A DNA stretch of 63,779 bases, filler included, from Nemertoderma westbladi (lineage: Eukaryota; Animalia; Xenacoelomorpha), in the NCBI GenBank assembly GCA_032718475.1. It is 3 parts of 3 records of this genome, joined end to end, with 100 filler letters (N's around TTAATTAATTAA, not from the genome) between each part and the next. Parts side by side here need not be neighbours in the genome. Positions count along the whole stretch, not along the records: positions 1 to 25,873 come from JAUCBJ010002997.1; 2 more parts are not named here. One strand, 5' to 3'. A program made the position numbers and the translations under genes. Position 1 is the stretch's first letter. Every line of letters starts with the position of its first letter. The notes beneath the pieces are model-generated. The model was not told the DNA's origin. It saw only the letters and a program-made list of their open reading frames with translations, and did not search any database. Shown piece after piece: positions 11,641-50,985 of this stretch.

Positions 11641-11806
11641 GGTAGTAACCAATAAGAACTGCATACAGCGTGATTAACTTTTTACTATTATTATTTACTT
11701 TCGTATTCAACCAAAGATTCACTACATTTAGAAATACCTAATTTAGTGTATGACATTTCTGCTCATTGTGCGTAACTCCGTTTTAAATTTAACCGGGCAC
11801 TAACAT

Positions 11807-13357
11807 GTGGACTTTATAATGATCCCATTCGACTTCACCACCCTCCCCTTTCGCATTGAAGCCAAGCGAAGAGGAGAAACGAACCACGTTTCTAAAGGAA
11901 CCCGGACAACCCAACGGAGAGAAACCAACCCGTTTAAAATCTCCACTAACACATCACAAGTGACAAATATCTCAGCCACGATCAACCTTATAAATCGCCG
12001 TTACATGGTCTTCGCCAAAGTAATCCCAGTAAGAATTCAAGGGGTCGGCAAATCCTTGACGACACTCGCGTTCCTTGATAACGGGTCGGACGGAACCATC
12101 ATCGACCGGGATTTCCTCGAGCAACTCGGCCTAGACTATAAACCTTGCAAACGGCCCATACAAACTATCACCGACCACAGAGAGGTAGAATCCGGGGAGG
12201 TGCAACTCCAGATGGAAGGGGTAATGAAGGGCTACGAGACGGTTAAGATGACCATCAAGAACGCCTTAGTACACACAGACCTCCGAGTGCAGTTCCGACA
12301 ATCAGCCGAGTACGCCCCCCTCATACAGCTGGACCGAGACGACGTGGATCTAAGGTGCCCGCCGTTGGATGTAAACCGCATCACCCTACTGATCGGACTT
12401 GATACACCGGAACTACACATACCCACCAGAGACGTCGCCCGATCTATAAAGCAGGATGACGGCTTTTACGCTGAACGAACAATAATGGGATGGACACTCT
12501 GCGGCATCAAGGAAGAGACTACCGACACCTATACATACCTTCCTAAATGTCAGATTAAAGAAAATGCAACATCCGTGGGTTATTGCTCAGCTACAGACCT
12601 GGGCGAGGAATTATTCCTTGAGACCGAGAAATCCCAGCAGGAGCTGACCAAATACTTTAATCTAGAGACCCAAGAGTTTGCCGAGAAGGACGAGAATCCG
12701 TCCGAGGAAGATCAATATTGTATCGACATTTTTGATCAGGCAACGTTCAAAGACGGACATTGGTGCTCGCCCATGCTTTGGTGGCTAGTAATGTTGTTGA
12801 TGATAATAATGACGTGGATAACATTGACACCATTAATGGGAGAGTATGGACTAATCTGCCGTAATACCCGGATGGCGAACGCCTCGGTTGAGTCCCTCAC
12901 ACCCAACCACCTACTGGGAAGACCCAAGACCCATATTCCTCCAGAAATAATGTTTCCGGATCCCAACGATATCGCGAGACATACATATTGGAAGAAGGCC
13001 CAAGCGTTGGCAGCGCATTGGTGGAGAATCTGGGCCCAGGAGTACCTCATAACCCTCCGGACCAGGAGGAAGTGGAACAACACCTACAGGAATGTCGAAG
13101 TTGGCGACATGGTGCTGGTCAAAGAAGACCTCAGAGACCGCGTCCACTGGCCTGTGGCGCGAGTCGTGGCAATACAACCGAGCAAAGACGGACTTGCGAG
13201 GACTGTGACGATACGAACGGCAAAGGGCCACTACCAACGCCCTATCCAGAGGCTGTGCCTTCTTGAAGGCAATGACAGCGGTGACTCTACGAGAGGTGAT
13301 AAGTTTCCTACTCAAGATCCTGCTGCAGACATTGGTGACAAACCTAAACCCGTTTAA
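11807..13357 (+). pseudogene. Bel/Pao pol remnant: aspartic protease fused in frame to integrase C-terminal region; RT, RNase H and integrase core missing
   Basis: AFLDNGSDGTII and ITLLIGLD protease motifs; LTPNHLL..YWKKAQALA..WWRIWAQEYL..L..R.KW..N..VGD.VLVK..WPVARV..SKDG..R.V.IRT..RPIQRLC typical of the Bel/Pao integrase C-terminus. Confidence 0.88.
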
Positions 13358-14479
13358 ACCCTTCTCATCATGTTGACAAACTCTTTTAAACTGTGATTTA
13401 TTGACAATGAAAATGGACCCCCCTTAAACCAACTGTAACCACGCAATGGTATTTGTGTTTCCTCGTGTGTTATGTGGAGTCCAGCGTCACCCTGCAGATG
13501 TTTCGACTGACGCAGGGTCGTTTATGTATTGTTTACCCTGATTTTGGTCATCGGGACCAATGACATTGGATTATTGGAAATGGTAAAGATTTGAAGTGGA
13601 ATTCATTGTATCCATTGTAGTATGTTATGTTGTCCGTTGCGTGCGCAGTTCGGGGCGTAGGCGGTGTAACTAGTCCAGCTGTAGATCCCGGATTGCCGCG
13701 CAACACCCCCTTTATCCCGTTATTCTGGTGGGTCCATGGTGCATCCACATGACTTCGACGATAGAGGGTTTTATGTTTCTCAGTCGCGTTATTCTGGTGG
13801 GACCGTTGCGTGGATTTTGGGGCATAAGCGGTGTAACTAGTCCAGCTGTAGATCCCAGAATGTTGCGTAACCCCATCCCACATGACTTCGTCGGCTGAGC
13901 TTTATGTTGTTGGGAGTGTTATTCTGGTGGGTCCCTGGTGCATTCCACGTGACTTCACTTCCAGCGTCTTCATTGTCCGTTACGTGTGCAGTTTGGGGCG
14001 TAGGCGGTGTAACTAGCCCAGCTGTAGATCCCAGATTGACGCGTAACACCCCTTCCACAACGAAAATTTCCCAAAGAAGATGATTGAATGTAGTTGGAAA
14101 TGATGAAAAGAAACAGACGACATTACTATAAACCGAATGATGACGCGTATGATGATGAAAATGTAATGATGCGCACCCTGGTGCTGCGCTTATAACAAAT
14201 GATGATAGCCGGGGGGCTATAACCCCAATGATGATGTGGAAATAAATGGAAATGTGAAATAAATGTGAAATAAATGGTGGAACTAAATGATGAAATGTGT
14301 TGAAATAAATGAAATGTGATGAAATAATAATGAGAAATGAAAAAAGACAAAAAAAGGTATAAAAAGTCTAAAGAAAAGAATTGGAAACAAGAAAAGGACA
14401 TAAAAAGTCATAAAAACTGTTTCAGACTTTCTGGACTTATAATTAACTGATCTAATTTGTAACGGACATAATCGTAAAT

Positions 14480-16927
14480 ATGGACCCAAATCGCCAAATT
14501 ATCGGCGAATTACGTAATACGATAGATCTACTGGAATATCCGCAACCTGGATCCCCTAACTTTGATACGAATTGGAATGCCCTGATAAATGAGAACGTGC
14601 GAGTCGTTAAATTCACCGGGCGAGAGGGACCGGATTCCCGGAACCTACGAGAGCTCCGGTTGGCCGATGCTAGTACGAGACTGAAAAGAACTCGGAACGC
14701 AAAGGCAACCGGATGGGACGAGTCGTCGTTCTGGGAAACTTTCCGGCAAAGCGTCTACAAATCCCGATGTTTGATATACGACAACGAAGGAAACGCGACG
14801 CCCACCTCGAAAGCGATTACGTTGGCGAGATGTCAAAGTTTCGTCGACGACAAGAGTACGTACCTCGCCCACTGGGGAAACCTGTCGGAGTGTACGGCGA
14901 CGCTACGAGAGGAACGTATATCGATCATCCAGAATTGCGACGACTACCAGGAAAAGTACGGGTCGAAAAAATATGGTCGATCCTTGGTCGTCGTCCTCGG
15001 AACCCTGGACGGTTTGGTATTGGTGTGTCGAATATTTCCGACACCCAGACAGGAAGTGCAGGCAGCCGGAGCGATCTGGTTACTACCTCCGGAAATCCAA
15101 AAGATCCTTTTCGACTTCGACGTCATTAAAATCGGGTCGGATATAAAGGCGGACGTCCGGAATGACTACGCGAACGCTCCTTCAGGAAGAGACCGACGAG
15201 ACGACCTCAACGCCCTTAGCCATTGCGTCGACACTCAAACGCTATTAGCCTGGTTACGATTCGCTGAGTTCATGCGAGGATTCCGAGAGGTGAGACCGAC
15301 GAAATCCGGGATCGGCTACCTCGCTGTGCTAAACGGCGGCATCGACTTCAAACCCCAGAAATTCCGGGATTATAATAAAATATATGGTGGATACCCGGGA
15401 TTAGAAATAAAGAGCGAGCGAGAGGGTCGATGGAAGGACGTTGAGAGAAAGTGGACGATACACCAAAGGTGGGAGAATCTGGATCGACGGAACTACATCT
15501 ACGTCGTTATGGAATCATACACCGTCGCTAAGTTTATCTGTAAAACTCTCGATAACCTCATTACGGCGGTTCCTCTTTCCTTCGTCGACTACGACTGGAA
15601 CGAGGTTATAAACCACGCATTCAAAGCGGTCGAGAACATTACACCGGGAGAGACGAAAACGCTAGCCGTTATCGATTCCTGGGACGAGAGTGGACCTTAC
15701 GACATCCCTACGATTACCGATCTTCTCGGTGCGGAGGAGCCTCTGATTTCTTCGGAAGGGGAAGAACTATGGCTACATGAGGGTGTCCTACTCTCCACCC
15801 CGAAGCGACAACTCGAGCCGGAGGCCGCTTACCAACCGGCCGCCAAACGGATTGCTTCGGCCGAACCTACGACGGAAGCAGGCATATTATCCCCACTCGG
15901 CTCCGGTAGCCCTGCGAGGGAGTTAATCACCACCTCCGCGTTGAGCGACTTCGGCGATATATGCCAAAGGTTATCACCATATCCTTTCCCGGGAGGCGAA
16001 GACTGGTCTTCGGAGATTCCGAGTACCAGCAACCAACGGCCCCGCTCAGCGATACTGGTTGAAAAGGGTCCCAGCGCTGCGCCGACTCCCGACGATCTCC
16101 TCGGTATCCCTCGGTCGAAAACCCCGGCACCTCTTCGCCGACCAGCGGTGGCTACTACACCCTCCGTTCCTCAGGATCCTATGCGACTAACCCGTTGGTA
16201 CGCCGAGCAAACCGAATGGATCCACCGCCAGAAACGGTCGTCCGAGTTGAGACCGACGGGACACAAAGAAGGTTATCGGAGCGAGGACCTACTACGCAAA
16301 AGCCCAGCCTTCCGCGGGCTACCGACCACCGCGAATATTCAGAAGAGCGACCGACGACTCGAGTATTACGTCGGCGTCCCGATTCCGATATTCCCCGGTC
16401 GAGAGATGCAGTTGGAGGTGTGCGGTAACTGCGGTTCGGAGCAGTGCCCACGCGGTAGAAGGAATCGGGTTACCGATTCATGCCTCCAGCTCCTCGGGAT
16501 ACTTTATTGCCCATACTGCGCGACATCGGGCCACGACGTTTCCGTCTGTCCGATCCTATATAACCTCTGCACCACGTGCGGTTTCCGTGGACATTCCGCT
16601 AGCCCCCGCTGCTATATCAAATGTCCTACCAAAGACGTTACCGCTATGGGAAATATGGTCATGTTTGAAACATACGCAAACAGCCACATAAAGACCAAGG
16701 TTCGGAGAAACGCTCGGATTATCGCGCAGGAGATGGCGTGCGGGTATTTCTCCTTCCCGGAACGCCTCCACACGACGGCCACGCTGCCTTTCCATTGCGT
16801 GGATCTGTTGCTGAGCGCCGGATTATTCGGCCCATTCGAAGTCATTAGACGCTTATACTCGTATAAAGAGGAGTTCGGTGACGGAAAGTGGTTCCTAGAG
16901 GCGCGCAACACCGAGTTGGAAAGATGA
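14480..16927 (+). CDS. 815-aa retrotransposon accessory protein: DEDDy (WRN/EXD-like) 3'-5' exonuclease-like domain, Pro/Ser-rich linker, C-terminal Cys/His zinc knuckles
   Basis: Uninterrupted ATG-TGA ORF. LPPEIQKILFDFDVIKIGSDIKAD (ExoII-like), CVDTQTL, SGIGYLA, RWENLDRRNYIYVVMESY (ExoIII-like); CPYCATSGHDVSVC and CTTCGFRGHSASPRC knuckles plus CGNC..C. Confidence 0.7.
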   Translation: MDPNRQIIGELRNTIDLLEYPQPGSPNFDTNWNALINENVRVVKFTGREGPDSRNLRELRLADASTRLKRTRNAKATGWDESSFWETFRQSVYKSRCLIYDNEGNATPTSKAITLARCQSFVDDKSTYLAHWGNLSECTATLREERISIIQNCDDYQEKYGSKKYGRSLVVVLGTLDGLVLVCRIFPTPRQEVQAAGAIWLLPPEIQKILFDFDVIKIGSDIKADVRNDYANAPSGRDRRDDLNALSHCVDTQTLLAWLRFAEFMRGFREVRPTKSGIGYLAVLNGGIDFKPQKFRDYNKIYGGYPGLEIKSEREGRWKDVERKWTIHQRWENLDRRNYIYVVMESYTVAKFICKTLDNLITAVPLSFVDYDWNEVINHAFKAVENITPGETKTLAVIDSWDESGPYDIPTITDLLGAEEPLISSEGEELWLHEGVLLSTPKRQLEPEAAYQPAAKRIASAEPTTEAGILSPLGSGSPARELITTSALSDFGDICQRLSPYPFPGGEDWSSEIPSTSNQRPRSAILVEKGPSAAPTPDDLLGIPRSKTPAPLRRPAVATTPSVPQDPMRLTRWYAEQTEWIHRQKRSSELRPTGHKEGYRSEDLLRKSPAFRGLPTTANIQKSDRRLEYYVGVPIPIFPGREMQLEVCGNCGSEQCPRGRRNRVTDSCLQLLGILYCPYCATSGHDVSVCPILYNLCTTCGFRGHSASPRCYIKCPTKDVTAMGNMVMFETYANSHIKTKVRRNARIIAQEMACGYFSFPERLHTTATLPFHCVDLLLSAGLFGPFEVIRRLYSYKEEFGDGKWFLEARNTELER

Positions 16928-17259
16928 ACCGATATGATCCCGATGCCATCGAAAGGCAGAGCCGCCAGGAGACAAGCCGAAGCGTTGCTCACGATGGATG
17001 TTTGACGCTCCCCTTCCAGCTCTAGCGATCGACGAGAGTCGATGGGCGAAGAGGAGAAAGGCGTATCAGAGAAAGAAATAGTGGATCGGGATATTCCAGG
17101 AACATTTATTGAACATTTATTTTTATACATATATATATACATAAACTCTAGGCCAAATTAATCAAGACTATGCAATATTAAATTTGGATTTTTTATATTG
17201 GGAATGACCTACGCAAACTCAATCTACCGATAGACCTCACGAAGGTCATTGGGGGGGAC

Positions 17260-18458
17260 TGTTCGCGGTATTTCAACTTTTCATAACGCGAGTTGAATAT
17301 TTTTTGTATTTATTTAAAATGATTATTCCGATATCACTACTGGGTGCGGGACCATGGGTTTTGGGCACATTCTATGGACTGGGGGCGATTTATGGGCGAA
17401 TATTGGGGCGACTTACAGGGTACGGGAATAATTTCATGTTTATAAGGGCCAGGGGTGGGAGGCAAAGTTAAGCAGTATTCAGGTTAGCCTGAGTACTATT
17501 AGGCCCTGGCCAACTTCCTGTTGCCTGTAGAGGTGGATTTGGTAACGTGCCAGGCCTAAAGGACAAGGACTGCCCTTAGCGGTCCCTGGCCAACAGCAGT
17601 TATTACGAGCCTGAAAAGGACATCGGAACGCCAGCTGCTTGTGTCAGGGACTTGCGACGGGAAACGACACGACAGACCCCTAGCCAAGCCGTACTGGTTC
17701 TCGATGATCGTTCCCTTCGGGGTTCGTGAGGGGTGGGAAGGACACGCGAAAGGGTCTACCGACTAACAGAGGAAGGGTTTGACGAGGACTGCCCTTAGCG
17801 GTCTCTGGTCAACAGCAGTTATTACGAGCCTGAAAAGGACATCGGAACGCCGGCTGCTTGTACCAGGGATTTGCGACGGGAACCGACGACAGACCCCTTA
17901 GCCAAGCCGTACTGGTTCTCGATGATCGTTCCCTTCGGGGTTCGTGAGGTGTGGGACGGACACGCGACGGGGTCGAAAGACAAAGGACTGGACTCTACTG
18001 GCCTACCTACTGTTCGGAGCAGTTTCTCGGCTGCCGAAGCGACTACGAGCCTGAATAAGAACTCGGAAAGCCTAGGTGGTTGGGTCTCTGCGATGAACCG
18101 ACGGACCCCTAGCCAAGCCGTACTGGTTTTCGATGATCGAACCCTTCGGGGTTCGGGAGGGGTGGGACGGACACGCGAACGGGTCCACCGACACGACAGA
18201 CTCCTAGCCAAGCCGTACTGGTTCTCGATGACCGATCCCTTCGGGGTTCGAGAGGGGTGGTACGGATACGCGACAGAGTCTACCGACTGGACCGACCCTT
18301 AGCCAAGCCGTGCTGGTTCTCGATGAAAGATCCCTTCGGGGTTCGGGAGTGGTGGAACGGACACGCGACAGGGTCGACCGACACCGACACTACGGCACCA
18401 AGACTAGGACCGCGGGAAAATCTGGGGAACATTAGTTAGGCTAAAATCTGAGCGAACA
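17260..18458 (+). repeat. 3' LTR (~1.2 kb) containing five ~84-nt stem-loop repeats and a ~220-bp internal duplication
   Basis: TG...CA ends with 7-bp terminal inverted repeat TGTTCGC/GCGAACA; G-rich PPT immediately upstream. Confidence 0.8.
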
Positions 18459-18739
18459 GTGGGTAATTAGATAATATACTGTAGGGATTTATATTGTCGT
18501 GTATAATTATTGTGAATATTTGGTGTATATTGATTTGGGGAAGCCCAATTAATTCTCAATCAAGGTTCAGTGAGATTAGCTCAAGGTTCAACTGTAGGGA
18601 AGTTACATTAAAGCGTATATCCAACCAATGCAGCTTTTTCTCAACCGCAATCTTGCATTTAGGAACATTCCTTCTCCACAATCAATATCCGGTGACTGGC
18701 CGGGATTCCGTGGTCTGTAAAATTCCGCCTCCAGCATCA

Positions 18740-19250
18740 GCGTTTTTCCCCCATGGTGTCGGGAATAACGGCAACAAAGGGACTGTCGCGCCGGACACCC
18801 CACCAAAGTAGATATCATGGTCGGAGAGATCTCCAAAAGGATCTATGGGACTAGCATTTGTCTGATTAACCGTAGGCAATGGGGAATCGTAACTGATCTC
18901 ATTGAGCACGTTCAGGCTTGGTTGAGCCCACCAGTTGTTCGAGTTGAACTATAGGGAAGGGATAGTCCTTCCGGACACCCCACCAAGGTAGATATCGTGA
19001 TTGGAGAGATCTCCAAAAGGATCTACAGGACTAGCACTCGTCGGATTAACCATAGGCAATGGCGAATCGGAACTGAACTCGTTGCGTGCATCCAGACGTT
19101 GTAGAGCCCACGAGTTTAACTGTAGGGACGGGATAGTCGTTCCAAACAACCCACCAAGGTAGATATCGCGATTGGAGATATCTACGAAAGTATCATTCAT
19201 GGTGTTCATCTCGTTAAGCGCATCCAGACATGGTTGAGCCCATGAGTTTA
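18740..19250 (-). repeat. About three diverged ~170-bp repeats reading as a peptide repeat (PFGDLS.HDIY.GG.SG.T.P.L) in a stop-interrupted minus-strand frame
   Basis: ORFs 18682-18909 and 18949-19209 share the repeated peptide and lie in one frame separated by a stop. Confidence 0.6.
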
Positions 19251-20232
19251 ACTCTCAAAAGATTTCGTCAGGGTCAGGAGGCGTGGTCCCTGTAGGCCTA
19301 CCCCTACATGTACCTGATCTCAATCCTCCTGGTCTGGATGGATCCTGTACATATTCGAGTCTCGTCAATCTCATGACTGGGGTCGTACTACATATGTCGT
19401 ATTTGTATCATCAACGGTATTTTGTATCTCAGTGCAGATATCAGATTCAGACTTGTGCTTTTACTGGCTTTTACTGGTTTAATGGTTTATTACCTATGAT
19501 ATTTCTATTTTACATGGAAGGAAGAACAAGAAGCAAGTTTTCCTAAGATCTATGTCACAAATCCATCACTACAGATCCACGAGAACAAACCAAACTCTCA
19601 AACTCAAGCGAACGGTAACCTGCCGCGCATGTGTTCTTAGATCTAGCCGGCTACAGCGACACTCCCAGATTCAGGGTTTTAGCCAAATTAATCATTATCA
19701 GAGAGGATTGAATCAATCGATCAAACGATTGAATCGATCAGGTATTTACCCTCCTTGGGAAAGGTTAGCTACCACACTGCCCGCCAAGAGAAAATTGGGG
19801 AAAAAAAATTGGGAAATTACAATGTCCCAAATTTCCAGACCTCAGCATTAATTGTATTATTCCCGGTTGTGTTTAGTGTTGCATTGATACTAAGTTTGTT
19901 TTCGAGGCTAGTTAGCCAGGCCACAGAATTGGTGTCAGGGAGGTTTGACAAGAACACATCACCCCCAGCTAACTTTAAAATATGCCTTTTTGTTAGCAAA
20001 ATGACTCATATGCCAGGCCATTACTGCACCAGGTGATGCTTTTAGAATACTGTAGAATGTAAACATCTGATAGATAGATTCACATACCCTTGATGGGATG
20101 ATGGACAGTTGGCCTTATTTTTAGAGAAATAACCGAATCCTGGTTAAATACATTTATTATTGACTTCCAATGATAATAAATATTTGTCATCTCTAGTATT
20201 CAGTTGGAGGGCAATATTGTATAATTGATATC

Positions 20233-23200
20233 ATGAATCTAGATCCAACAATGGCAAAGAGTGCATTTGAATTAAGAAAAAAAGAAAGCCAAGTTCCTTG
20301 GATATGTAGTTGCAGACTAAATATGGCAGTTGTTGCATTCTTTGGATGCGTTTCACTCTATGCCCTGCGTATCAATATTTCAGTTGCGATATTATGCATG
20401 GTTCGGGATATGGAGGGTGATAATTTAAACTCTTCCGATTTAACACCAACTTTGAATTCTAACAACACTGAATCAAACGTTTGTGAAGCTGTCCAAGACA
20501 TGTCTGAGACACTTAAAGTTATTAAGGGTGAGTTTGACTGGTCACATGATATAAAGGGTTACATTCTGAGTTCATTCTTCTGGGGTTATCTCGTGACCCA
20601 GATACCAGGAGGTTGGTTGGCTGAAAGATATAGTGCGAAGTATATTATTCTCATATGTATGGTGTGTAAATCAATTGCCACATTCTTGTGTCCTATAGCA
20701 GCTAAATTGCACTGGGGATACCTATTGGCTATGCGCGTAGTAATCGGATTGGCAGGGGGTGTCTGGTTTCCTGCCCTTCACTGTATCATTGGTAATTGGA
20801 GCCCCCCATGGGAATGCAGTACAATAGGTGCCATCGCGTGGTCGGGGATGCAGATAGGCAACGTTATTGGTCTATCATTGTCTGGAGTCTTGTGCCAGTA
20901 TGGATTTGACGGAGGATGGCCTAGCATATTCTACTTGATGGGGGCTGGCAATATAATATGGTGCATCAGTTGGTACTTTCTTGTCTTCGATTCACCACGT
21001 AAACATCCTAGAATTTCCGAAATCGAATATATATATATAAAAGAAAGCATTGCGAAAGAAAAAAGAATCAGTGGTGTCCGTGGCCCTACTCCTTGGAAAG
21101 CCATCTTTACATCAGTGCCATTCTGGGCTCTGCTAATTACCCAAACTTGCTGCCACTTTGGGGATTACATGCTACTGACTCAACTGCCTTCCTATATGAA
21201 CGAAGTCCTCCAATTTGATATAAAGAGCAATGGATTCTATTCTGCATTACCTTATATTGGATTCTTTATTATGATAAATGTTGGGGGTCAATTGTCTGAT
21301 CAACTTCGAGAAAGAAAGATACTCAGTACATCGCAGACGAGAAAGGTCAGATAATCTAACTTAAATTACATTTATATCTTTAATTGCCATTCTGCATTGC
21401 AACTGCTTTAAGAATGCTTTGATCGAAATGACCTTCATGAGATTATTCGCTCTTTCAAGGACAGTGTCCTTTAATTAAGAGATGTCCACAACATGGGATG
21501 TCCACCATGCTTATTCTCTCCATGAGGCTGCGAAATCACAAGATTGTGCAACGTAAGGAAAGCTTGAAAAGTTGATAATTATATTTTATTTATATTTATA
21601 TTTAACGTCAAGCTACTAATAGTAAAAAACCGTACCGGTAGGTATGTACAACAATAAGTAAAGAAAAATCGACTGGAGACCCAGACATGCATGTAATAGT
21701 GATCTGCTGACTGCAGACAGCTGATCGGTAGTTTGTTTGAACGCGTTAGACAACACCAGGACAGTACAGCCAATGATGGGAGTGAGCAGGGCAAGACTGT
21801 GCACCACCACATCACGACGCACCGTGGCGAGCCCAATACACATTAGCTGACTAACTGGCGTGAGCTTTTTAAACATTTCAAAGTTATTGCTAGGCACCCA
21901 CTGCGGCCTGTTCTGCAAAAGCTTGAAATTTACTATATTCGCATGCGCCAGCCAGTTATCAACAAGCAGAAACGTGATTGGCATAAGTGTGTGCTTAGTT
22001 AACTAGTTAACCCCATCACACTTTGCCTGTTCTTCTTATTTGGGAACTTCACTCTACTGTCGTCCTGCTAGCTTGAGCATCCTGAGGAAGCCCGCTGTAT
22101 TGGGGCGAAACCTACCGATCAGCTGTCTGCAGTCAGCTGATCACTATTACATGCATGTCTGGGTCATAACAAATTTGGTACACACACTTTGAATAAACAT
22201 TGGAATCAGAAAATTCACGGTGGTCTTCGCTTTTCAATTCTCATAAGATTAATTTTTTTTTTCGCTTTACCTTCTATGCTATTTCTCTTGCTTTGTCTTT
22301 CTTGGTGTGCTTCTTTTGTGCAGTAATCTTTCACTTAAAAATATCTTGTACATGTGAGTAGATTATTTTCACTCATTTTCCATACAAATATCATGGACGC
22401 GGCGCAGTCCAACTCAAATTTCGAGTATTTCAATGAAATCCACGAACTAGTGGCACTTGCTACTATGTGGATTTCATTCGAATTCGGATCCTCACCCAAT
22501 AATTAAATGTATCTATCTATATTACTTTATTTCGTGTTTGCTATCGTGCTGGTGCTGGGTCTGTCGTACCATATTTTATTGGAATTATTAAAGTTCAAGT
22601 TCAAAGTTCAAGTTCAAGTTCAAAGGGTATCCAGTCGATTTTTATTTACTTGTTGTACATACCTAGCGGTACGGTTTTTCACTATTAGTAGCTTGACGTT
22701 AAATATAAATATAAATAAAATATAATTGTGCAATGGTTGGTCATCACAGCGAAAACAATGACCTACAATGTGGGGGTGAATATGTTCCAGTGTTGGAGGA
22801 CCAAATTGACTCCTCCAATGGTTGGAGGTGCATGTGCATTGAACTTGACCCAATGAACCCAGTGAAGCATGCTTGTGTATGTATCTTGGACAGCCAAATC
22901 AATGCTGCCCATAACTTTCCCTTACGTACCTTTTGTCCATCACCCTAAAGTATGTGCCAATTATAGCTGTATAACTTAGTATTTTATTTCTTTATTATGA
23001 TTAATATTTTATTAGGTAATGAACTCTATTGGATCTGTGTGCCCTGCCATATTTCTCGTTGCCACCAGCTACATGACTTGTAATCAAGGTGCAACCGCGG
23101 TCGCTCTGTTGACTATTGGCGTCTCATTTAGTGGATTCCAATATGGCGGTGGTTTCCTTGTGAATCACATCGACCTCGCCAGAAAGTACGCCGGAACTCT

Positions 23201-27000: not shown

Positions 27001-30000
27001 CTACTCTGTCCCCCCAACCCGATGGTAGTGTACCACTCTGTCCTCCAACCCCGATGGTAGTGTACCACTCGTCCTCCAACGCTGATGGTAGTGTACCACT
27101 CGTCCCCCCAACCCGATGGTAGTGTACCACTCGTCCCCCCAACCCGAAGGCAGTGTACCACTCGTCCCCCCAACCCGATGGCAGTGTACCACTCGTCCCC
27201 CCAACCCGATGGTAGTGTACCACTCTGTCCTCCAACCCCGATGGTAGTGTACCCCTCTGTCCTCCAACCCCGATGGCAGTGTACCACTCTGTCCCCCCAA
27301 CCCCGATGGTAGTGTACCACTCGTCCCCCCAACCCCTATGGTAGTGTACCCCTCTGTCCTCCAACCCCGATGGCAGTGTACCACTCTGTCCCCCCAACCC
27401 CGATGGTAGTGTACCACTCGTCCCCCCAACCCCTATGGTAGTGTACCACTCTGTCCCCCCAACCCCGATGGCAGTGTACCACTCTGTCCCCCCAACCCCG
27501 ATGGTAGTGTACCACTCGTCCCCCCAACCCCTAGGGTAGTGTACCACTCGTCCCGCCAACCCCGATGGTAGTGTACTACTCTGTCCCCCCAACCCGAGGG
27601 TAGTGTACCACTCAGTCCCTCCAACCCCTAGGGTAGTGTACCACTCGTCCCCCCAACCCGATGGTAGTGTACCACTCTGTCCCCCCAACCCCGATGGTAG
27701 TGTACCACTCTGTCCCTCCAACCCCTAGGGTAGTGTACCACTCGTCCCCCCAACCCGATGGTAGTGTACCACTCTGTCCCCCCAACCCCGATGGCAGTGT
27801 ACCACTCTGTCCCCCCAACCCCTAGGGTAGTGTACCACTCGTCCCCCCAACTCCTAGGGTAGTGTACCACTCGTCCTCCAACCCCGATGGTAGTGTTCCA
27901 CTCTGTCCCCCCAACCCCTATGGTAGTGTACCACTCTGTCCCCCCAACCCCGATGGCAGTGTACCACTCTGTCCCCCCAACCCCGATGGTAGTGTACCAC
28001 TCGTCCGCCCAACCCCTAGGGTAGTGTACCACTCGTCCCCCCAACCCCTAGGGTAGTGTACCACTCGTCCTCCAACCCCGATGGTAGTGTACCACTCTGT
28101 CTCCCCAACCCCGATGGTAGTGTACCACTCTGTCCCCCCAACCCCGATGGTAGTGTACCACTCGTCCCCCCAACCCCTAGGGTAGTGTACCACTCGTACC
28201 CCCAACCCCTATGGTTGTGTACCACTCTTTCCCCCCAACCCGATGGTAGTGTACCACTCTGTCCCCCCAACCCCGATGGTAGTGTACCACTCTGTCCTCC
28301 AACCCCGATGGTAGTGTACCACTCTGTCTCCCCAACCCCGATGGCAGTGTACCACTCTGTCCCCCCAACCCCGATAGTAGTGTACCACTCGTCCCCTCAA
28401 CCCCTATGGTAGTGTACCACTCTGTCCCCCAACAACGATGGCAGTGTACCACTCTGTCCCCCCAACCCCGATGGTAGTGTACCACTCGTCCCCCCAACCC
28501 CTAGGGTAGTGTACCACTCGTCCCCCCAACCCCTAGGGTAGTGTACCACTCGTCCTCCAACCCCGATGGTAGTGTACCACTCTGTCCCCCCAACCCCGAT
28601 GGTAGTGTACCACTCTGTCCTCCAACCCCGATGGTAGTGTACCACTCTGTCCCCCAACCCCGATGGCAGTGTACCACTCTGTCCCCCCAACCCCGATAGT
28701 AGTGTACCACTCGTCCCCCCAACCCCGATGGTAGTGTACCACTCTGTCCCTCCAACCCCGATGGTAGTGTACCACTCTGTCCCCCCAACCCCGATGGCAG
28801 TGTACCACTCTGTCCCCCCAACCCCGATGGTAGTGTACCACTCTGTCCCCCCAACCCCGATGGTAGTGTACCACTCGTCCCCCCACCCCTAGGGTAGTGT
28901 ACCACTCTGTCCTCCAACCCCGATGGTAGTGTACCACTCTGTCCCCCCAACCTCGATGGCAGTGTACCACTCTGTCCCCCCAACCCCGATGGCAGTGTAC
29001 CACTCTGTCCCCTCAACCCCGATGGTAGTGTACCACTCGTCCCCCCAACCCCTAGGGTAGTGTGCCACTCTGTCCTCCAACCCCTATGGTAGTGTACCAC
29101 TCTGTCCCCCCAACCCCGATGGTAGAGTACCACTCTGTCCTCCAACCCCGATGGTAGTGTACCACTCGTCCTCCAACCCCGATGGTAGTGTACCACTCTG
29201 TCCCCCAACCTCGATGGTAGTGTACCACTCTGTCCTCCAACTCCGATGGTAGTGTACCACTCTATCCCCAACCCCGATGGCAATGTGCCACTCTGTCCCC
29301 CAACCTCGATGGTAGTGTACCACTATGTCTCCCAAATCCTATGGAAGTGTACCACTCTGTCCCCCAACACCGATGGTAGGTTGGTGGCTTGGTGCCACTC
29401 TGTCCCCCAACACCGATGGTAGGTTGGTGGCTTGGTGCCACTCTGTCCCCCAACACCGATGGTAGGTTGGTGGCTTGGTGCCACTCTGTCCCCCAACACC
29501 GATGGTAGGTTGGTGGCTTGGTGCCACTCTGTCCTCCAACACCGATGGTAGGTTGGTGGCTTGGTGCCACTCTGTCCCCCAACACCGATGGTAGGTTGGT
29601 GGCTTGGTGCCACTCTGTCCCCCAACACCGATGGTAGGTTGGTGGCTTGGTGCCACTCTGTCCCCCACCACCGATGGTAGGTTGGTGGCTTGTTACCACT
29701 CTGTCCCCCAACACTGATGGCAGTGTACCACTATGTCTCCCAAATCCTATGGAAGTGTACCACTCTGTCCCCCAGCACCGATGGTAGGTTGGTGGCTTGG
29801 TGCCACTCTGTCCCCCAACACCGATGGTAGGTTGGTGGCTTGGTGCCACTCTGTCCCCCAACACCGATGGTAGGTTGGTGGCTTGGTGCCACTCTGTCAT
29901 CCAACACCGATGGTAGGTTGGTGGCTTGGTGCCACTTTGTCCCCCAACACCGATGGTAGGTTGGTGGCTTGGTGCCACTCTGTCCTCCAACACCGATGGT

Positions 30001-33000
30001 AGGTTGGTGGCTTGGTGCCACTTTGTCCTCCAACACCGATGGTAGGTTGGTGGCTTGGTGCCACTTTGTCCTCCAACACCGATGGTAGGTTGGTGGCTTG
30101 GTGCCACTTTGTCCTCCAACACCGATGGTAGGTTGGTGGCTTGGTGCCACTTTGTCCCCCAACACCGATGGTAGGTTGGTGGCTTGGTGCCACTCTGTCC
30201 TCCAACACCGATGGTAGGTTGGTGGCTTGGTGCCACTTTGTCCTCCAACCCCGATGGTAGGTTGGTGGCTTGGTGCCACTCTGTCCTGCAACACCGATGG
30301 TAGGTTGGTGGCTTGGTGCCACTTTGTCCTCCAACACCGATGGTAGGTTGGTGGCTTGGTGCCACTCTGTCCCCCAACACCGATGGTAGGTTGGTGGCTT
30401 GGTGCCACTCTGTCCTCCAACACCGATGGTAGGTTGGTGGCTTGTTACCACTCTGTCCCCCAACACTGATGGCAGTGTACCACTATGTCTCCCAAATCCT
30501 ATGGAAGTGTACCACTCTGTCCCCCAACACCGATGGTATGTTGGTGGCTTGTTACCACTCTGTCCCCCAACACTGATGGCAGTGTACCACTATGTCTCCC
30601 AAATCCTATGGAAGTGTACCACTCTGTCCCCCAACACCGATGGTAGGTTGGTGGCTTGGTGCCACTCTGTCCCCCAACACCGATGGTAGGTTGGTTGCTT
30701 GGTGCCACTCTGTCCCCCAACACCGATGGTAGGTTGGTGGCTTGGTGCCACTCTATCCCCCAACACCGATGGTAGGTTGGTGGCTTGGTGCCACTTTGTC
30801 CTCCAACCCCGATGGTAGGTTGGTGGCTTGGTGCCACTCTGTCCCCCAACACCGATGGTAGGTTGGTGGCTTGTTACCACTCTGTCCCCCAACACCGATG
30901 GTAGGTTGGTGGCTTGTTACCACTCTGTCCCCCAACACTGATGGCAGTGTACCACTATGTCTCCCAAATCCTATGGAAGTGTACCACTCTGTCCCCCAAC
31001 ACCGATGGTAGGTTGTTGGCTTGGTGCCACTCTGTCCCCCAACACCGATGGTAGGTTGGTTGCTTGGTGCCACTCTGTCCCCCAACACCGATGGTAGGTT
31101 GGTGGCTTGGTGCCACTCTGTCCCCCAACACCGATGGTAGGTTGGTGGCTTGGTGCCACTCTGTCCCCCAACACCGATGGTAGGTTGGTGGCTTGGTGCC
31201 ACTTTGTCCTCCAACCCCGATGGTAGGTTGGTGGCTTGGTGCCACTCTGTCCCCCAACACCGATGGTAGGTTGGTGGCTTGTTACCACTCTGTCCCCCAA
31301 CACTGATGGCAGTGTACCACTATGTCTCCCAAATCCTATGGAAGTGTACCACTCTGTCCCCCAGCACCGATGGTAGGTTGGTGGCTTGGTGCCACTCTGT
31401 CCCCCAACACCGATGGTAGGTTGGTGGCTTGGTGCCACTCTGTCCCCCAACACCGATGGTAGGTTGGTCGCTTGGTGCCACTCTGTCCCCCAACACCGAT
31501 GGTAGGTTGGTGGCTTGGTGCCACTCTGTCCTCCAACACCGATGGTAGGTTGGTGGCTTGGTGCCACTCTGTCACCCAACACCGATGGTAGGTTGGTTGC
31601 TTGGTGCCACTCTGTCCCCCAACACCGATGGTAGGTTGGTGGCTTGGTGCCACTCTATCCCCCAACACCGATGGTAGGTTGGTGGCTTGGTGCCACTTTG
31701 TCCTCCAACCCCGATGGTAGGTTGGTGGCTTGGTGCCACTCTGTCCCCCAACACCGATGGTAGGTTGGTGGCTTGTTACCACTCTGTCCCCCAACACCGA
31801 TGGTAGGTTGGTGGCTTGTTACCACTCTGTCCCCCAACACTGATGGCAGTGTACCACTATGTCTCCCAAATCCTATGGAAGTGTACCACTCTGTCCCCCA
31901 ACACCGATGGTAGGTTGTTGGCTTGGTGCCACTCTGTCCCCCAACACGATGGTAGGTTGGTTGCTTGGTGCCACTCTGTCCCCCAACACCGATGGTAGGT
32001 TGGTGGCTTGGTGCCACTCTGTCCCCCAACACCGATGGTAGGTTGGTGGCTTGGTGGCACTCTGTCCCCCAACACTGATGGTAGGTTGGTGGCTTGGTGC
32101 CACTTTGTCCTCCAACCCCGATGGTAGGTTGGTGGCTTGGTGCCACTCTGTCCCCCAACACCGATGGTAGGTTGGCGGCTTGTTACCACTCTGTCCCCCA
32201 ACACTGATGGCAGTGTACCACTATGTCTCCCAAATCCTATGGAAGTGCACCACTCTGTCCCCCAGCACCGATGGTAGGTTGGTGGCTTGGTGCCACTCTG
32301 TCCCCCAACACCGATGGTAGGTTGGTGGCTTGGTGCCACTCTGTCCTCCAACACCGATGGTAGGTTGGTGGCTTGGTGCCACTTTGTCCCCCAACACCGA
32401 TGGTAGGTTGGTGGCTTGGTGCCACTCTGTCCTCCAACACCGATGGTAGGTTGGTGGCTTGGTGCCACTCTGTCCTCCAACACCGATGGTAGGTTGGTGG
32501 CTTGGTGCCACTTTGTCCTCCAACACCGATGGTAGGTTGGTGGCTTGGTGCCACTCTGTCCCCCAACACCGATGGTAGGTTGGTGGCTTGGTGCCACTCT
32601 GTCCCCCAACACCGATGGTAGGTTGGTGGCTTGGTGCCACTCTGTCCCCCAACACTGATGGTAGGTTGGTGGCTTGGTGCCACTTTGTCCTCCAACCCCG
32701 ATGGTAGGTTGGTGGCTTGGTGCCACTCTGTCCCCCAACACCGATGGTAGGTTGGTGGCTTGTTACCACTCTGTCCCCCAACACTGATGGCAGTGTACCA
32801 CTATGTCTCCCAAATCCTATGGAAGTGTACCACTCTGTCCCCCAGCACCGATGGTAGGTTGGTGGCTTGGTGCCACTCTGTCCCCCAACACCGATGGTAG
32901 GTTGGTGGCTTGGTGCCACTCTGTCCTCCAACACCGATGGTAGGTTGGTGGCTTGGTGCCACTTTGTCCCCCAACACCGATGGTAGGTTGGTGGCTTGGT

Positions 33001-34257
33001 GCCACTCTGTCCTCCAACACCGATGGTAGGTTGGTGGCTTGGTGCCACTCTGTCCCCCAACACCGATGGTAGGTTGGTGGCTTGGTGCCACTCTGTCCCC
33101 CAACACCGATGGTAGGTTGGTGGCTTGGTGCCACTCTGTCCTCCAACACCGATGGTAGGTTGGTGGCTTGTTGCCACTTTGTCCCCCAACACCGATGGTA
33201 GGTTGGTGGCTTGGTGCCACTCTGTCCTCCAACACCGATGGTAGGTTGGTGGCTTGGTGCCACTCTGTCCTCCAACACCGATGGTAGGTTGGTGGCTTGG
33301 TGCCACTTTGTCCTCCAACACCGATGGTAGGTTGGTGGCTTGGTGCCACTTTGTCCTCCAACCCCGATGGTAGGTTGGTGGCTTGGTGCCACTTTGTCCT
33401 CCAACCCCGATGGTAGGTTGGTGGCTTGGTGCCACTCTGTCCCCCAACACCGATGGTAGGTTGGTGGCTTGGTGCCACTCTGTCCTCCAACACCGATGGT
33501 AGGTTGGTGGCTTGGTGCCACTTTGTCCTCCAACCCCGATGGTAGGTTGGTGGCTTGGTGCCACTCTGTCCTCCAACATCGATGGTAGGTTGGTGGCTTG
33601 GTGCCACTTTGTCCTCCAACACCGATGGTAGGTTGGTGGCTTGGTGCCACTCTGTCCCCCAACACCGATGGTAGGTTGGTGGCTTGGTGCCACTCTGTCC
33701 TCCAACACCGATGGTAGGTTGGTGGCTTGGTGCCACTCTGTCCCCCAACACCGATGGTAGGTTGGTGGCTTGGTGCCACTCTGTCCTCCAACATCGATGG
33801 TAGGTTGGTGGCTTGGTACCACTCTGTCCTCCAACCCCGATGGTAGGTTGGTGGCTTGGTGCCACTCTGTCCCCCAACACCGATGGTAGGTTGGTGGCTT
33901 GGTGCCACTCTGTCCTCCAACACCGATGGTAGGTTGGTGGCTTGGTGCCACTCTGTCCCCCAACACCGATGGTAGGTTGGTGGCTTGGTACCACTCTGTC
34001 CTCCAACACCGATGGTAGGTTGGTGGCTTGGTGCCACTCTGTCCTCCCACCGATGGTAGGTTGGTGGCTTGGTGCCACTCTGTCCCCCAACACCGATGGT
34101 AGGTTGGTGGCTTGGTGCCACTCTGTCCCCCAACACCGATGGTAGGTTGGTGGCTTGGTACCACTCTGTCCCCCAACCCCGATGGTAGGTTGGTGGCTTG
34201 GTGCCACTCTGTCCCCCAACACCGATGGTAGGTTGGTGGCTTGGTGCCACTTTGTCC
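27001..34257. repeat. 7.3-kb composite satellite: 31-33-bp units (27001-~29340) then related 43-bp units (~29350-34257)
   Basis: gatggtagtgtaccactctgtccccccaacccc versus gatggtaggttggtggcttggtgccactctgtcccccaacacc. Confidence 0.97.
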
Positions 34258-35729
34258 TTCTCTGACATTGGGCCTACAGGTAGAATCAACGGACCACACC
34301 TGAAATAAACGTGTTTAAGTTCAGTCTAATATTCTATTGTTTTAGTTGACTTTATTTATTTTGCAGTTAAACTAATACATCAATCATATTTTGTAATACA
34401 ACATTATAAGAATATTAAATTAAATATTCACTTTTAATAACAATTTCAATATCTTATTGTTATTTTGGTTAGATTTATGGAATATAGATTTTATTTATTT
34501 CTGGGGAATTAATTTCGCACTACCAAATCTCCAGTGCGAAATTATGTATCAGTAAGTCCCTACGCCATACGATTTCAATGTATGTCCAGTAAGTCACCGC
34601 GTCATTCTAAATATAATCCTATGACGTCATACGAATAAACTCTATTACTATTTCACAATAATATGTACCTAATACTTACAAAATAATGAAATTGGTTTAT
34701 GATTTAGTGTTATGATTCGAACCAACGGTCTTTACACATTTTTTTAATTATCATTGTGATGCTTACATGTTACAAGGTTGTTCTAGAAACTTTAAATGCA
34801 TCTATCAAATAAATACCCGCAAATAAATAAAATTAGATTCGCAATTTTTCGTAATTAGCACTTTAAAGTTTTACAGCCCTCGTTTTGTTATACGAGGGTT
34901 ATACAACATCACTCGCGCCGTAACGCTATATAAAGTGCTATTTTATGAACAATGATGTATAAAGTTATATCAAACTCCATATCATTGAATTTTTATTGTC
35001 ATTTTTTTTAAATATATTAGTGTAATATTCTATTGGGTAGTCCGGGCGAATGTACCGATACTCAAAATCTCGAGAAAACCAAAGTAACTATAACTACTTT
35101 ATTGTTTAAAGGTTTTAATTTCTAAGTTATATATTGAGTTTGCGCTTTTTAACCTTCCTTCCTATACAGTGTATTTTTGATAGTTACATTTTTGTTTTAT
35201 TTTGCTTCACTTCCGTGTAGTGGTATACACAATACGGAACTCGAAACGCTAAGAAGCAGGTAATCCCAACATCAATAATGTACCTTATAACTCAATGTAT
35301 TCACATCTGTGTCGTGTGCTTCAGCCCTTTATTTTCCAAACTAACTTTTTGTAAACTCTTATCCTTCCCCTATTTTTTATTATTATTATTTCGGAACGGT
35401 TGTGTGGGCCGTCCATAGCCTATATATCATGTTATATCATATTTGTATAATAAGATAAATATGAAACGGTATATAACACAAAAATAGGAAACATATAAAG
35501 TAAACTAAGTCAAGTCAAGTAAAGTCTCTTGTTTTTGGATGGTGTACTATTGAGACAGATAAGTGAACTTATAGATTGTCCCAGTAGTAAAAATTGGAGA
35601 TGGTTGTGGAAAAAATACATTCTGATATAAAGCCTGAAAGATTGGACGTTGAAATACTCAGTACGCGAGAAAAACACTACGCCCCACAATATACTATCCT
35701 ATATCGACAAACCTACATGAAAACATTAA

Positions 35730-47500: not shown

Positions 47501-47575
47501 AACTAGTACTGTTGATTGGATGTTCGTTGTTGAATTTCTCGAAATAATTTGCACCCAGTTCGGGGTTGTTCGTTT

Positions 47576-49543
47576 ATGTGGCAACGAGAATCCTCGCTCA
47601 GCGCCGCAGACGACGTCACAGCGCCACTAATGAACACCGAACCGCTGCCGGCGGTGGACCGGGAGGTGGACTGGGCCCGTTACGGGCTGGACGGGCCCGC
47701 GACGCCCGCACAACCCGCTCACACGGGCGTCCACGACCTCTTCCACGAGGATAAACTCTCGTCGTCCTCCGGAGAACAGAAACCCTGGTGGAAGTCGAAC
47801 TTCTTCGTGCGGGAACCCGTTCTGTTCGGCACCTGGGATGGGGTATTCACCTCCGCGATGCTAAATATATTCGGGGTTGTTATCTTCTTGCGAACCGGAT
47901 GGGTTGTGGGCAACGCTGGGATCGGGTTATCCCTTCTAATCATCGTACTTACTTTAGCGGTCGCGCTTATAGCGGCTTTGAGCGCGATTGGAATCTGCGA
48001 GAGACTCAACCTCCCGGCAGGAGGGGTCTACACTCTACTTAGTAGCGTTTTAGGTGCTCAAATAGCGGCTTCTATTGGCGCTGTTTATTGTTTCGCCCAG
48101 GCTGTCGCAGCCGCGTTGTACTGTACCGGTTTCGGGGAGTCTATGGCGGGGGTTTTCGGTATCGAAGACAACACCTGGGCCATCCGCGGTATCGGAATCG
48201 GGGTGCTGCTACTTCTATTGGCTATTAACATCGCGGGTGTTAAGTGGGTGGTTAAGTTACAACTCGCTCTGCTTCTAATCCTACTGGTTTCTGTTCTTGA
48301 CTTCGCCGTGGGAACTTTCGTTCACACCGACACCTCGCAGGGTTTCTGGGGATACAGTCGCAGTTTGCTTAGCAACAACACCAAACCGGACTACAACGTC
48401 GGACAGACTTTCTTCACGGTATTCGGGGTTTTCTTCCCTACCGCTACCGGAGTCTTCGCCGGTATCAACATGTCCGGCGACCTTCGCAATCCGCGCGCAT
48501 CAATCCCCAACGGGACGTTAATGGCCATCGCCGTCAGCGGATTCCTCTACATCCTCCACGTGGTCATGCTCGGGGCCACCTGCACGCGCGACGCTCTCAA
48601 ACACAACTACCTTATCGCGGAGATCGTTAGCGTCGTCGGGGTCCTGTGGTTGATGGGTCTCTATATATCCTCGTTGTCGTCCACTCTGGGCGCGGTTTAC
48701 GGGGCCCCGCGTATACTGCAAGTGATCGCCCAGGAACGCAGCATTCCCATCATAGAATTCCTCGGAAAAGGCCGCGGAACTAATAACGAACCGATATATG
48801 CTACTCTAGTTGTTTGTTTCATCGCACTTTGTTTCATTCTCATAGGTCATATAAACACTTTAGCACCGATTGTGACTCTCCCATTTATGTTGACTTACTG
48901 CGCCGTCGATTATTCTTACTTCGCTCTCGCGATGACGTACGATAGACTCTTAGAAGGGGGCCGTGTTGACCCCCAACAGAAGGGGGAAACAACCTCCCTA
49001 GTAGGGGGCGACAGTAAGCCCCCTACCCCATTGATAGAGGAACTCCCCCCTAACGAGCCGCCCCCCAGCTACGATTCGGTCTCCGCGAGTCCAACCCACA
49101 GCGATGGGGGGGACAAAGGGGGCGCCGTCAGCCCCCCGTACAAGCTGGATATATACCGGATGCCCAACAGCTGGTACAGTTCCATGTGCAACCGCTGGGT
49201 GTCGCTAATAGGCGCCGTCGGGTCTATAGTCATTATGTTCCTTATCGAGTGGACCTATACTTTGGTGTTGGTCGCTCTAACAATGTTACTGCATCTCTAC
49301 GTGCTGAAGGCCAGTTCGGGTTTAACAACGGGAGCCAATCAATTCGAGTTAATCGAATGGATTAAAGGTCTAAGGAAGCACGCTAGATGGCGTAGGAACG
49401 GGTACGAGCAGGTTAAGGTTATGACGCAGAGTCCCATACCCGAGATTTCTACGACGCAGTTAACCGAAGATGGGGACGACTACAAAGGTAGAGGTCGATA
49501 CCATCACTCCTCTAAACTAAAGGGGACCGATTATGACGGATGA
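47576..49543 (+). CDS. SLC12A8: Solute carrier family 12 member 8 (CCC9)-like transporter, single coding exon
   Basis: KPWWKSNFFVREPVLFGTWDGVFTS..LNIFGVVIFLRTGW.VGNAG, FFTVFGVFFPTATGVFAGINMSGDL..P..SIP.GT, GAPRILQ, CNRWVSLIGA. First ATG at 47576; true start may lie in an upstream exon. Confidence 0.9.
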   Translation: MWQRESSLSAADDVTAPLMNTEPLPAVDREVDWARYGLDGPATPAQPAHTGVHDLFHEDKLSSSSGEQKPWWKSNFFVREPVLFGTWDGVFTSAMLNIFGVVIFLRTGWVVGNAGIGLSLLIIVLTLAVALIAALSAIGICERLNLPAGGVYTLLSSVLGAQIAASIGAVYCFAQAVAAALYCTGFGESMAGVFGIEDNTWAIRGIGIGVLLLLLAINIAGVKWVVKLQLALLLILLVSVLDFAVGTFVHTDTSQGFWGYSRSLLSNNTKPDYNVGQTFFTVFGVFFPTATGVFAGINMSGDLRNPRASIPNGTLMAIAVSGFLYILHVVMLGATCTRDALKHNYLIAEIVSVVGVLWLMGLYISSLSSTLGAVYGAPRILQVIAQERSIPIIEFLGKGRGTNNEPIYATLVVCFIALCFILIGHINTLAPIVTLPFMLTYCAVDYSYFALAMTYDRLLEGGRVDPQQKGETTSLVGGDSKPPTPLIEELPPNEPPPSYDSVSASPTHSDGGDKGGAVSPPYKLDIYRMPNSWYSSMCNRWVSLIGAVGSIVIMFLIEWTYTLVLVALTMLLHLYVLKASSGLTTGANQFELIEWIKGLRKHARWRRNGYEQVKVMTQSPIPEISTTQLTEDGDDYKGRGRYHHSSKLKGTDYDG

Positions 49544-50499: not shown

Positions 50500-50985
50500 G
50501 TAGTGTGTATGTACACTAGTGTGTATGTACACTAGTGTGTATGTACACTAGTGTGTATGTACACTAGTGTGTATGTACACTAGTGTGTATGTACACTAGT
50601 GTGTATGTACACTAGTGTGTATGTACACTAGTGTGTATGTACACTAAGTGTGTATGTACACTAGTGTGTATGTACACTAGTGTGTATGTACACTAGTGTA
50701 CACTAGTGTGTATGTACACTAGTGTGTAGTGTATGTACACTAGTGTGTATGTACACTAGTGTGTATGTACACTAGTGTGTATGTACACTAGTGTACATTA
50801 GTGTGTATGTACACTAGTGTGTATGTACACTAGTGTGTAGTGTATGTACACTAGTGTGTATGTACACTAGTGTGTATGTACACTAGTGTACACTAATGTG
50901 TATGTACACTAGTGTGTATGTACACTAGTGTGTATGTACACTAGTGTACACTAGTGTGTGTGTATGTACACTAGTGTGTATGTGT
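50500..50985. repeat. 14-bp minisatellite (gtgtatgtacacta)n rich in short palindromes
   Basis: Tandem units containing TGTACA and ACTAGT palindromes. Confidence 0.95.

Follow-up and report, generated by a model that had tools for sequence, protein, structure and literature searches.

Structured hairpin repeats in the LTR of a Nemertoderma westbladi BEL/Pao retrotransposon and their possible role in protein docking

The window, a stretch of 63,779 nt (filler included) from the Nemertoderma westbladi assembly GCA_032718475.1, carries a retrotransposon copy that on the + strand reads in the order pol, an 815-aa ORF (ORF3), purine tract and LTR, with a host 180-bp repeat after 18776. The upstream ORF at 11804..13357 (+) is a pol remnant in which Pfam recognized an aspartyl protease (Asp_protease_2, E 4.3e-05) joined to DUF5641 (E 1.1e-28), and because this joining is a mark of BEL/Pao pol the ORF was assigned to that group. 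A polypurine tract was located from the sequence at 17251..17258 (+), and sequence together with contig depth placed the LTR, 1,517 bases with the ends TGTT..AACA, at 17260..18776 (+), so that pol, tract and the TG..CA LTR together match the BEL/Pao arrangement. Reverse transcriptase, RNase H and the integrase core gave no match in the element copy of the window, and neither a second LTR nor a 5' LTR was found within it. Low contig depth around the pol junction suggests that other copies of the element differ there. At 11828, a different LTR-like end was joined in some contigs of run X3.

Identity to the host repeat was 34/40 just after 18776 and 15/40 just before it; the low-copy tandem repeat of ~180 bp that is joined to the LTR end spans 18777-19250. 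Summed contig depth, which is not equal to copy number, was ~4,500-49,000 over the element, 51,000-195,000 over the LTR and ~80-300 over the flanks in three DNA runs, and in the DNA runs X1 and X3 the LTR reached ~2-4 times the depth over the ORF. The retrotransposon family is high-copy, and its LTRs outnumber its interiors. The purine tract, the TGTT..AACA ends, the host-repeat junction at 18776 and the excess of LTR depth bore out the initial annotation, which had placed a set of structured repeats inside an LTR. We infer the U3/R borders from sequence features: TATA-like sites lie at 17441 and about 18500, and the sole poly(A)-signal hexamer on the + strand of the LTR is ATTAAA at 18607, 3' of the repeats. 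Since this hexamer lies downstream of the array, the array would fall within the 3' end of the RNA whichever TATA-like site is used. Elsewhere in the window we observed about 100 copies of a 43-nt satellite (29220-34300), long single-frame host ORFs for an MFS transporter, an amino-acid permease and a GFO/IDH/MocA oxidoreductase (20197-21354, 47534-49543 and 54802-56190, respectively) and 16-nt tandem repeats in opposite orientations that form a large inverted repeat (50500-50950).

ORF3 (14480..16927, +) is predicted to encode a DEDDy-type exonuclease domain, a low-complexity linker and three Cys/His knuckles (648-705). It was covered at a depth like that of pol and is therefore present in many family members. 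ORF3 had no match in Pfam, none at E < 0.1 in a sequence search of the PDB and none in a homolog search of a 5.8-billion set, and protein scans of viral contigs found no relatives. Among 1.84 billion representatives, eight proteins were related at E <= 0.001, all without a useful name or a Pfam family. Several of the eight have the same layout of exonuclease and triple knuckle, and the ORF3 of the window has an insertion of ~55 aa after the first acidic motif. A model of the domain, with a pLDDT of 52.8, matched Egalitarian and EXD2 in Foldseek (E 6.7e-05 to 2e-04) and Nibbler (Z 9.8, rmsd 4.4, 194 aligned), WRN exo, RNase D and Rrp6 (Z 8-9.8) in structural comparison; all 18 of the 18 matches with Z >= 8 were DnaQ-fold chains, the quality of the model being moderate. 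For ORF3, Atlas pointed to PF01612 with a score of 0.91, the family being present on 50% of the cluster, and its leads for the knuckle region were all under 0.9. Residues D101, E103, D225, Y341 and E345 align with the acidic motifs of four relatives, with the last acidic residue being E rather than D and the first motif lying outside the aligned range of the model. ORF3 is thus a predicted DEDDy-type 3'-5' exonuclease with zinc knuckles, and by this prediction not a Rev/Rec-like adaptor.

In the bdelloid LTR elements Juno and Vesta, pol is likewise followed by a DEDDy-like ORF3 that precedes the 3' LTR (PMC5408684). The element described here differs in belonging to BEL/Pao, in the fusion of ORF3 to three Cys/His knuckles and in its flanking hairpin arrays; the available sections of PMC5408684 mention no RNA structure. 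The same sections leave the function of the exonuclease ORF3s open and propose that similar ORF3s process the 3' ends of retrotransposon RNA. A connection of C. elegans Cer13 with an exonuclease was not borne out by a search. The leader upstream of ORF3 (14060..14479, +) is unstructured and contains eight RTGATGA motifs where 1.1 were expected, a number reached in 0/1000 shuffles; they could be box C-like elements, GAY repeats or start-stop elements. The leader also has 29 ATGs 5' of the ORF3 start.

Within the LTR, ten hairpins follow one another at 17473-18376, in the order of a small one, B0, B1, A1, B2, A2, B3, A3, A4 and A5. The five A hairpins are the repeats of about 84 bases reported initially, and all five were found where they had been placed: copy 1 at 17674..17757, copy 2 at 17891..17975, copy 3 at 18103..18186, copy 4 at 18198..18281 and copy 5 at 18293..18376 (all +). 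In their alignment, 72/97 columns are invariant, and the invariance claimed for the internal-loop strands and for the apical CCC-TTCG-GGG held apart from one C/T change at unit position 70. The covariation described for the closing stem is present but thin, with three double changes in two columns: the terminal pair is A-U, G-C or C-G, and the fifth pair is C-G or U-A. Copy 4 has a double change in this stem, whereas in copy 2 the stem is shifted by one, with the terminal pair lost and an inner pair gained; copy 2 also has one mismatch in the canonical stem. Double changes are confined to the closing stem, and the other helices of the unit have none. The inner pairing proposed earlier, TTCTCGA/TCGRGAG, is possible as a rival register but cannot form fully in copies 1 and 2, and it is interrupted by the T at unit position 54; across three DNA runs, this T made up 65-74% of the depth in contigs.

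When the columns of the A alignment were shuffled, at least three compensated cells appeared in 5/500 cases and at least two such pairs in 41/500. Stem cells were paired in 88.9% of cases, compared to 30-52% in slid controls. With the same number of differences placed at random, the probability of reaching the observed compensation was 0.0002-0.007 when four of the five copies served in turn as reference, but 0.34 when copy 2 did. If the terminal pair is left out of the closing stem, a single double change remains (P about 0.2); this test omitted four variable positions, and the random-placement test that includes them is the more reliable. Singly, the A copies were mostly not more stable than shuffles (z of +0.25, -0.42, -1.19, -2.44 and -0.66 for A1-A5), copy 4 being the exception, and the array folded as a whole gave a z of -0.41 as the repeats cross-paired. 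The A unit alone offers modest support for selection on structure. Beyond these five, a covariance model detected no A copy in the window; the matches ranked next (<=23 bits) fell in an unrelated AT-rich inverted repeat, and it matched B0 weakly. A motif pattern scan returned 46 metagenome matches and one viral match, all single and none aligning to the LTR in blastn; these 47 loci were dismissed as chance, the covariance model giving one weak match (E 0.91) among them.

A small perfect hairpin at 17473..17497 (+; z -4.4) opens the array and is followed by B0, a short B-like hairpin at 17500..17558 (+; z -1.79). B1 at 17573..17661 (+; z -3.5) has a long stem and an apical CC-UGAAAA-GG, B2 at 17792..17880 (+; z -2.85) differs from it at six positions, and B3 at 18012..18098 (+) has diverged, with a z of -2.66 on the + strand versus +0.31 on the - strand. 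B1-B3 all fold better on the sense strand than on the opposite one. With helices set by hand, 6/6 differences between B1 and B2 keep the pairing, one as a double change and the rest as G.U exchanges, although this is not significant on its own (P 0.09-0.13). A basal UA-GC / GC-GA loop is common to A and B, and the basal UUA-GC / GC-GAC loop of B1 is identical to that of A copy 2.

A third structured family, the C hairpins, lies between pol and ORF3 at 13636-13704, 13805-13872 and 13979-14047 (+), with z values of -3.41, -1.81 and -3.49 on the + strand and about 0 on the - strand. The first and third copies differ by two double changes (P 0.009). The C hairpins (13636-14047) have an invariant core with a symmetric GUA/GUA loop, and nearby Rfam hits were sub-threshold. 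They could serve as an IRES, a splicing signal or a packaging signal. The fold was lower on the + strand in 17/20 windows of the LTR array and 12/14 of the C region, compared to 22/52 of ORF3. The G.U pairs of the hairpins become mismatches on the - strand, and because G.U wobbles keep the stems in the B and C families, the sense RNA strand is indicated. Selection on sense-strand RNA structure, which had been argued from double changes between the A copies, is therefore likely, but it is the three unrelated hairpin families taken jointly and the strand bias that support it more than the A copies do.

All five A copies have an invariant GAUGA opposite an invariant GA, which can be read as a kink-turn (k-turn): a GAU bulge, a G.A and an A.G pair, a variable pair between unit positions 35 and 54 and the UUCG-capped stem. 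In A copy 1 the bulge would be 17703-17705, and GA 17706-17707 would face GA 17728-17729 (+). The 35.54 pair, 3b.3n in k-turn terms, is U.U, U.U, U.G, C.A and A.G in A1-A5; by published k-turn rules, units with C.A and A.G would be expected to fold with Mg2+ only, and the one with U.G to require protein. On the other side of the bulge, this register pairs C-G, U.G and C-G; the C-G at -1b/-1n is present in 5/5 copies and all three positions are paired in 3/5, with other registers lower in energy. A 3-nt bulge followed by G.A and A.G was found in 5/5 copies and fits the standard definition (PMC8191799), and most k-turns have C-G at -1 (PMC5579392). In this register, the A units would resemble a standard k-turn in the bulge, the G.A/A.G pairs, the C-G at -1b/-1n and a 3b.3n pair that is U.U or otherwise non-Watson-Crick. 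They differ from it in having no standard C or D box (RTGATGA is absent from the LTR), in a weak, G.U-rich canonical stem with competing registers and in being present as five copies in a retrotransposon.

A strict k-turn pattern was matched by copies 1 and 4 (2/5) and a loose one also by copy 3 (3/5), compared to 2-12/5000 and 185-219/5000 shuffles, respectively; the pattern was set after the sequence had been seen, and together the five copies amount to a single observation. The whole window contained three strict hits, two of them being A copies 1 and 4. In ViennaRNA, no copy exceeded P 0.015 for the k-turn register; copies 1-3 were dominated by a Watson-Crick register (0.90-0.96) and copies 4 and 5 by the TTCTCGA/TCGRGAG register (0.91 and 0.69). 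The competing registers lay 2-6 kcal/mol below that of the k-turn, in a nearest-neighbour energy model that has no k-turn term. In X1, X3 and X6, a variant with other bases just ahead of the bulge has a mismatch in the Watson-Crick register but remains paired in that of the k-turn, although this was read by eye and a slid register would also be possible. On this evidence, it is close to an even call that each A unit forms a k-turn. If the Watson-Crick register holds instead, the loop would display GAUGAY, a listed SRSF7 motif, and docking of a protein would still fit.

Variation among family copies was read from contigs placed on A copy 3 (863, 217, 32 and 2 contigs in four runs). The resulting table covers the central part of the unit, with the closing stem and the GA pairs outside its reach; it is blind near the ends, where a majority difference at 18129 was missed, and it seemingly reports one letter per place. 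Within that central part, only five places, unit positions 35, 36, 38, 39 and 54, were variable at >= 1%, and all five are mismatches or 3b/4b/3n positions. Position 35 was C in 32-58% of depth in three DNA runs. None of positions 40-53, with CCC-TTCG-GGG-TTCG, was variable at that threshold in the three DNA runs (863, 217 and 32 contigs), and the mismatch at 18350 in A copy 5 is confined to this one genomic copy. The number of A units also varies: the LTR of a contig from X6, a run that may be RNA, has a single one, and joints that skip or add units were seen in X1, X3 and X4. A joint between 14700 and 17866 was rejected as a deletion, as it looks like a mis-mapped hairpin variant; a 20-mer is common to ORF3 and B3.

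The hairpins are separated by nine single-stranded linkers within 17559..18420 (+) that are A/C-rich and T-poor. They contain 21 GAC in 176 nt against a shuffled mean of 4.4, and 0/5000 shuffles reached 21, an excess that is overstated as the spacers are related by tandem duplication. Seven GGAC and nine DRACH were also counted, the latter matched in 132/5000 shuffles. In the available part of PMC9022966, GACGAC, GAYGAY and AAAGACAAA are listed as motifs of SRSF9, SRSF7 and SRSF10, respectively, GAY binding is ascribed to the SRSF7 zinc knuckle, and SR proteins are described as recruiting NXF1.

A scan of 17450-18450 against Rfam matched the repeats to no known family: two unrelated sub-threshold hits were returned (mir-7957, E 2.4; Atu_C10, E 2.2), and twister, pistol, HDV-like, hairpin and hatchet ribozymes gave no match. 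A box C/D snoRNA was rejected, with no RTGATGA in the LTR and no Rfam hit. Eukaryotic SECIS elements combine a core quartet with a helix of 11-12 bp and an apical AA. The A unit shares with them an AUGA-N / N-GA core in what would be a 3' UTR, and ORF3 ends in TGA, but its upper helix is short (about 8 bp), its loop is UUCG without an apical AA and there was no Rfam hit, so that a SECIS was also rejected. Among retroviral elements, the MPMV CTE, the IAP RTE and the MusD MTE are read by host proteins and lie upstream of the 3' LTR; in that position they differ from the array, which has no Rfam match to them. All three are named in PMC11379458, whose available part describes no k-turn in them, and the array resembles them as a rod-like RNA with conserved internal loops that host proteins would read. 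The same source describes the HERV-K(HML-2) RcRE, a 433-nt fold that lies in U3, and the MER11 CTE, and here the likeness extends to a structured RNA encoded in U3, an element with an extra ORF and an expected location at the RNA 3' end. In contrast to the RcRE, the array belongs to a BEL/Pao element, consists of ten short rods instead of one 433-nt fold and is accompanied by a predicted exonuclease with knuckles and not by a Rev-like adaptor; in sequence, the two were compared via Rfam alone.

Our preferred reading, to which we assign a probability of roughly 0.45, is that the array acts as a multimeric cis-acting platform for protein docking in the 3' end of the element RNA, similar to an RcRE or a CTE. 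The ORF3 prediction also admits a different relation between the hairpins and the protein, in which array and element-encoded 3'-5' exonuclease would be partners, with the array blocking digestion by ORF3 or the host exosome and so protecting the RNA or leaving defined, stable fragments. Other RNAs, for example the small RNAs of silencing, would then be what the nuclease attacks. The matches of the ORF3 model to Nibbler, WRN exo, RNase D and Rrp6, the acidic residues aligned with four relatives, the hairpin arrays on both sides of ORF3, its presence in many family members and the 3'-end processing proposed in the available part of PMC5408684 all speak for such a partnership. It is nevertheless unlikely, given the pLDDT of only 52.8, the middling Z scores, the E in place of D and the unaligned first motif. 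The same fold also binds RNA without catalysis in Egalitarian and EXD1, and simple hairpins without pseudoknots are, to our knowledge, not known as roadblocks for 3'-5' enzymes.

In another account, the repeats would act at the level of DNA as enhancers in U3, or would be tandem duplications that are nearly neutral, and their hairpins would be left over from an ancestral unit. Four of the five A copies fold no more stably than shuffled sequences, one unit suffices in the X6 contig, and the - strand also has the motif of the C-GAA-G mini-hairpin, which is stable in DNA. Tandem repeats are in addition common in U3 and act in transcription, according to the accessible part of PMC3601003. We nonetheless consider this account improbable, as the double changes and G.U exchanges on the sense strand in three families and a strand bias confined to the arrays speak against it. 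The A unit could also be a cassette for a small RNA, either related to Pol III genes or derived from a tRNA, or else resemble a miRNA precursor, and foamy viruses do carry small-RNA cassettes in U3. The A-box pattern TRGYNNARNNG, which has a frequency of 0.43 per kb in the window, occurs in 5/5 units; the match begins at position 8 or 9 of the unit and, as in a tRNA, comes after a stem of 6-7 bp, and GTTCG follows ~41 nt later. Yet a full B box was found at the expected place in 0/5 units (GTTCRA only in copy 4), a T4 run after the unit in 0/5, ARAGORN found no tRNA, and a typical miRNA precursor would have more regular stems. A type 2 Pol III gene was therefore rejected, and the whole class of small-RNA cassettes seems quite improbable. 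The suggestion of a ribozyme fared no better. The tandem G.A pairs by the UUCG-closed stem recall hammerhead domain 2, which has tandem G.A pairs, a variant subfamily has a hammerhead-like heptamer before the stem, and the internal loops are large and invariant, all of which would suit an undescribed self-cleaving ribozyme or a hammerhead derivative. The hammerhead core of CUGANGA, GAAA, NUH and three helices was however not found: CUGANGA is absent from both strands of the LTR in the window, no GAAA follows the stem and there is no third helix. No Rfam ribozyme matched at E <= 10 or, in another scan, at E <= 5, and the LTR is part of the reverse transcription template, which cleavage there would sever, making self-cleavage very improbable.

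We therefore retained the protein-docking platform, which was also the first of the roles suggested initially, and its candidate site, the k-turn, and its SR-type linkers can now be named. The A repeats would be one of two hairpin classes in an expandable LTR array, which would be transcribed, the only poly(A) hexamer being downstream of it. Every A unit would present a predicted k-turn and two irregular internal loops, and a host protein of the L7Ae family, for example Snu13/15.5K, would bind the k-turn. Proteins of the SR type or with zinc knuckles, known as adaptors of NXF1, would be recruited by the GAC-rich linkers, and the assembled platform would help the unspliced transcript to be exported and stabilized. 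That the element's own exonuclease/knuckle protein is one of the ligands, as had been proposed for the adjacent accessory protein, is conceivable but doubtful. A more elaborate version, which we regard as a rather long shot, would have a U3 k-turn array borrow host Snu13, and SR or knuckle proteins through the GAC linkers, to label the RNA for protection and export, while a 3'-5' exonuclease encoded by the element would leave array-bearing RNA intact, in a manner of RNA control like that of complex retroviruses.

The position, strand bias, stem conservation and copy-number variation of the array were observed directly, and the array is real and probably functional. A structured cis element in an LTR and an exonuclease ORF3 are each already known, whereas we found no report in the open-access literature of these motif families, of structured arrays in a BEL/Pao LTR, of a k-turn candidate in an LTR or of such motifs paired with an exonuclease-knuckle protein in BEL/Pao. 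A single high-copy family here combines three families of structured RNA with a k-turn prediction that can be tested and a candidate nuclease, all of which bear on how invertebrate LTR retrotransposons export and protect unspliced RNA.
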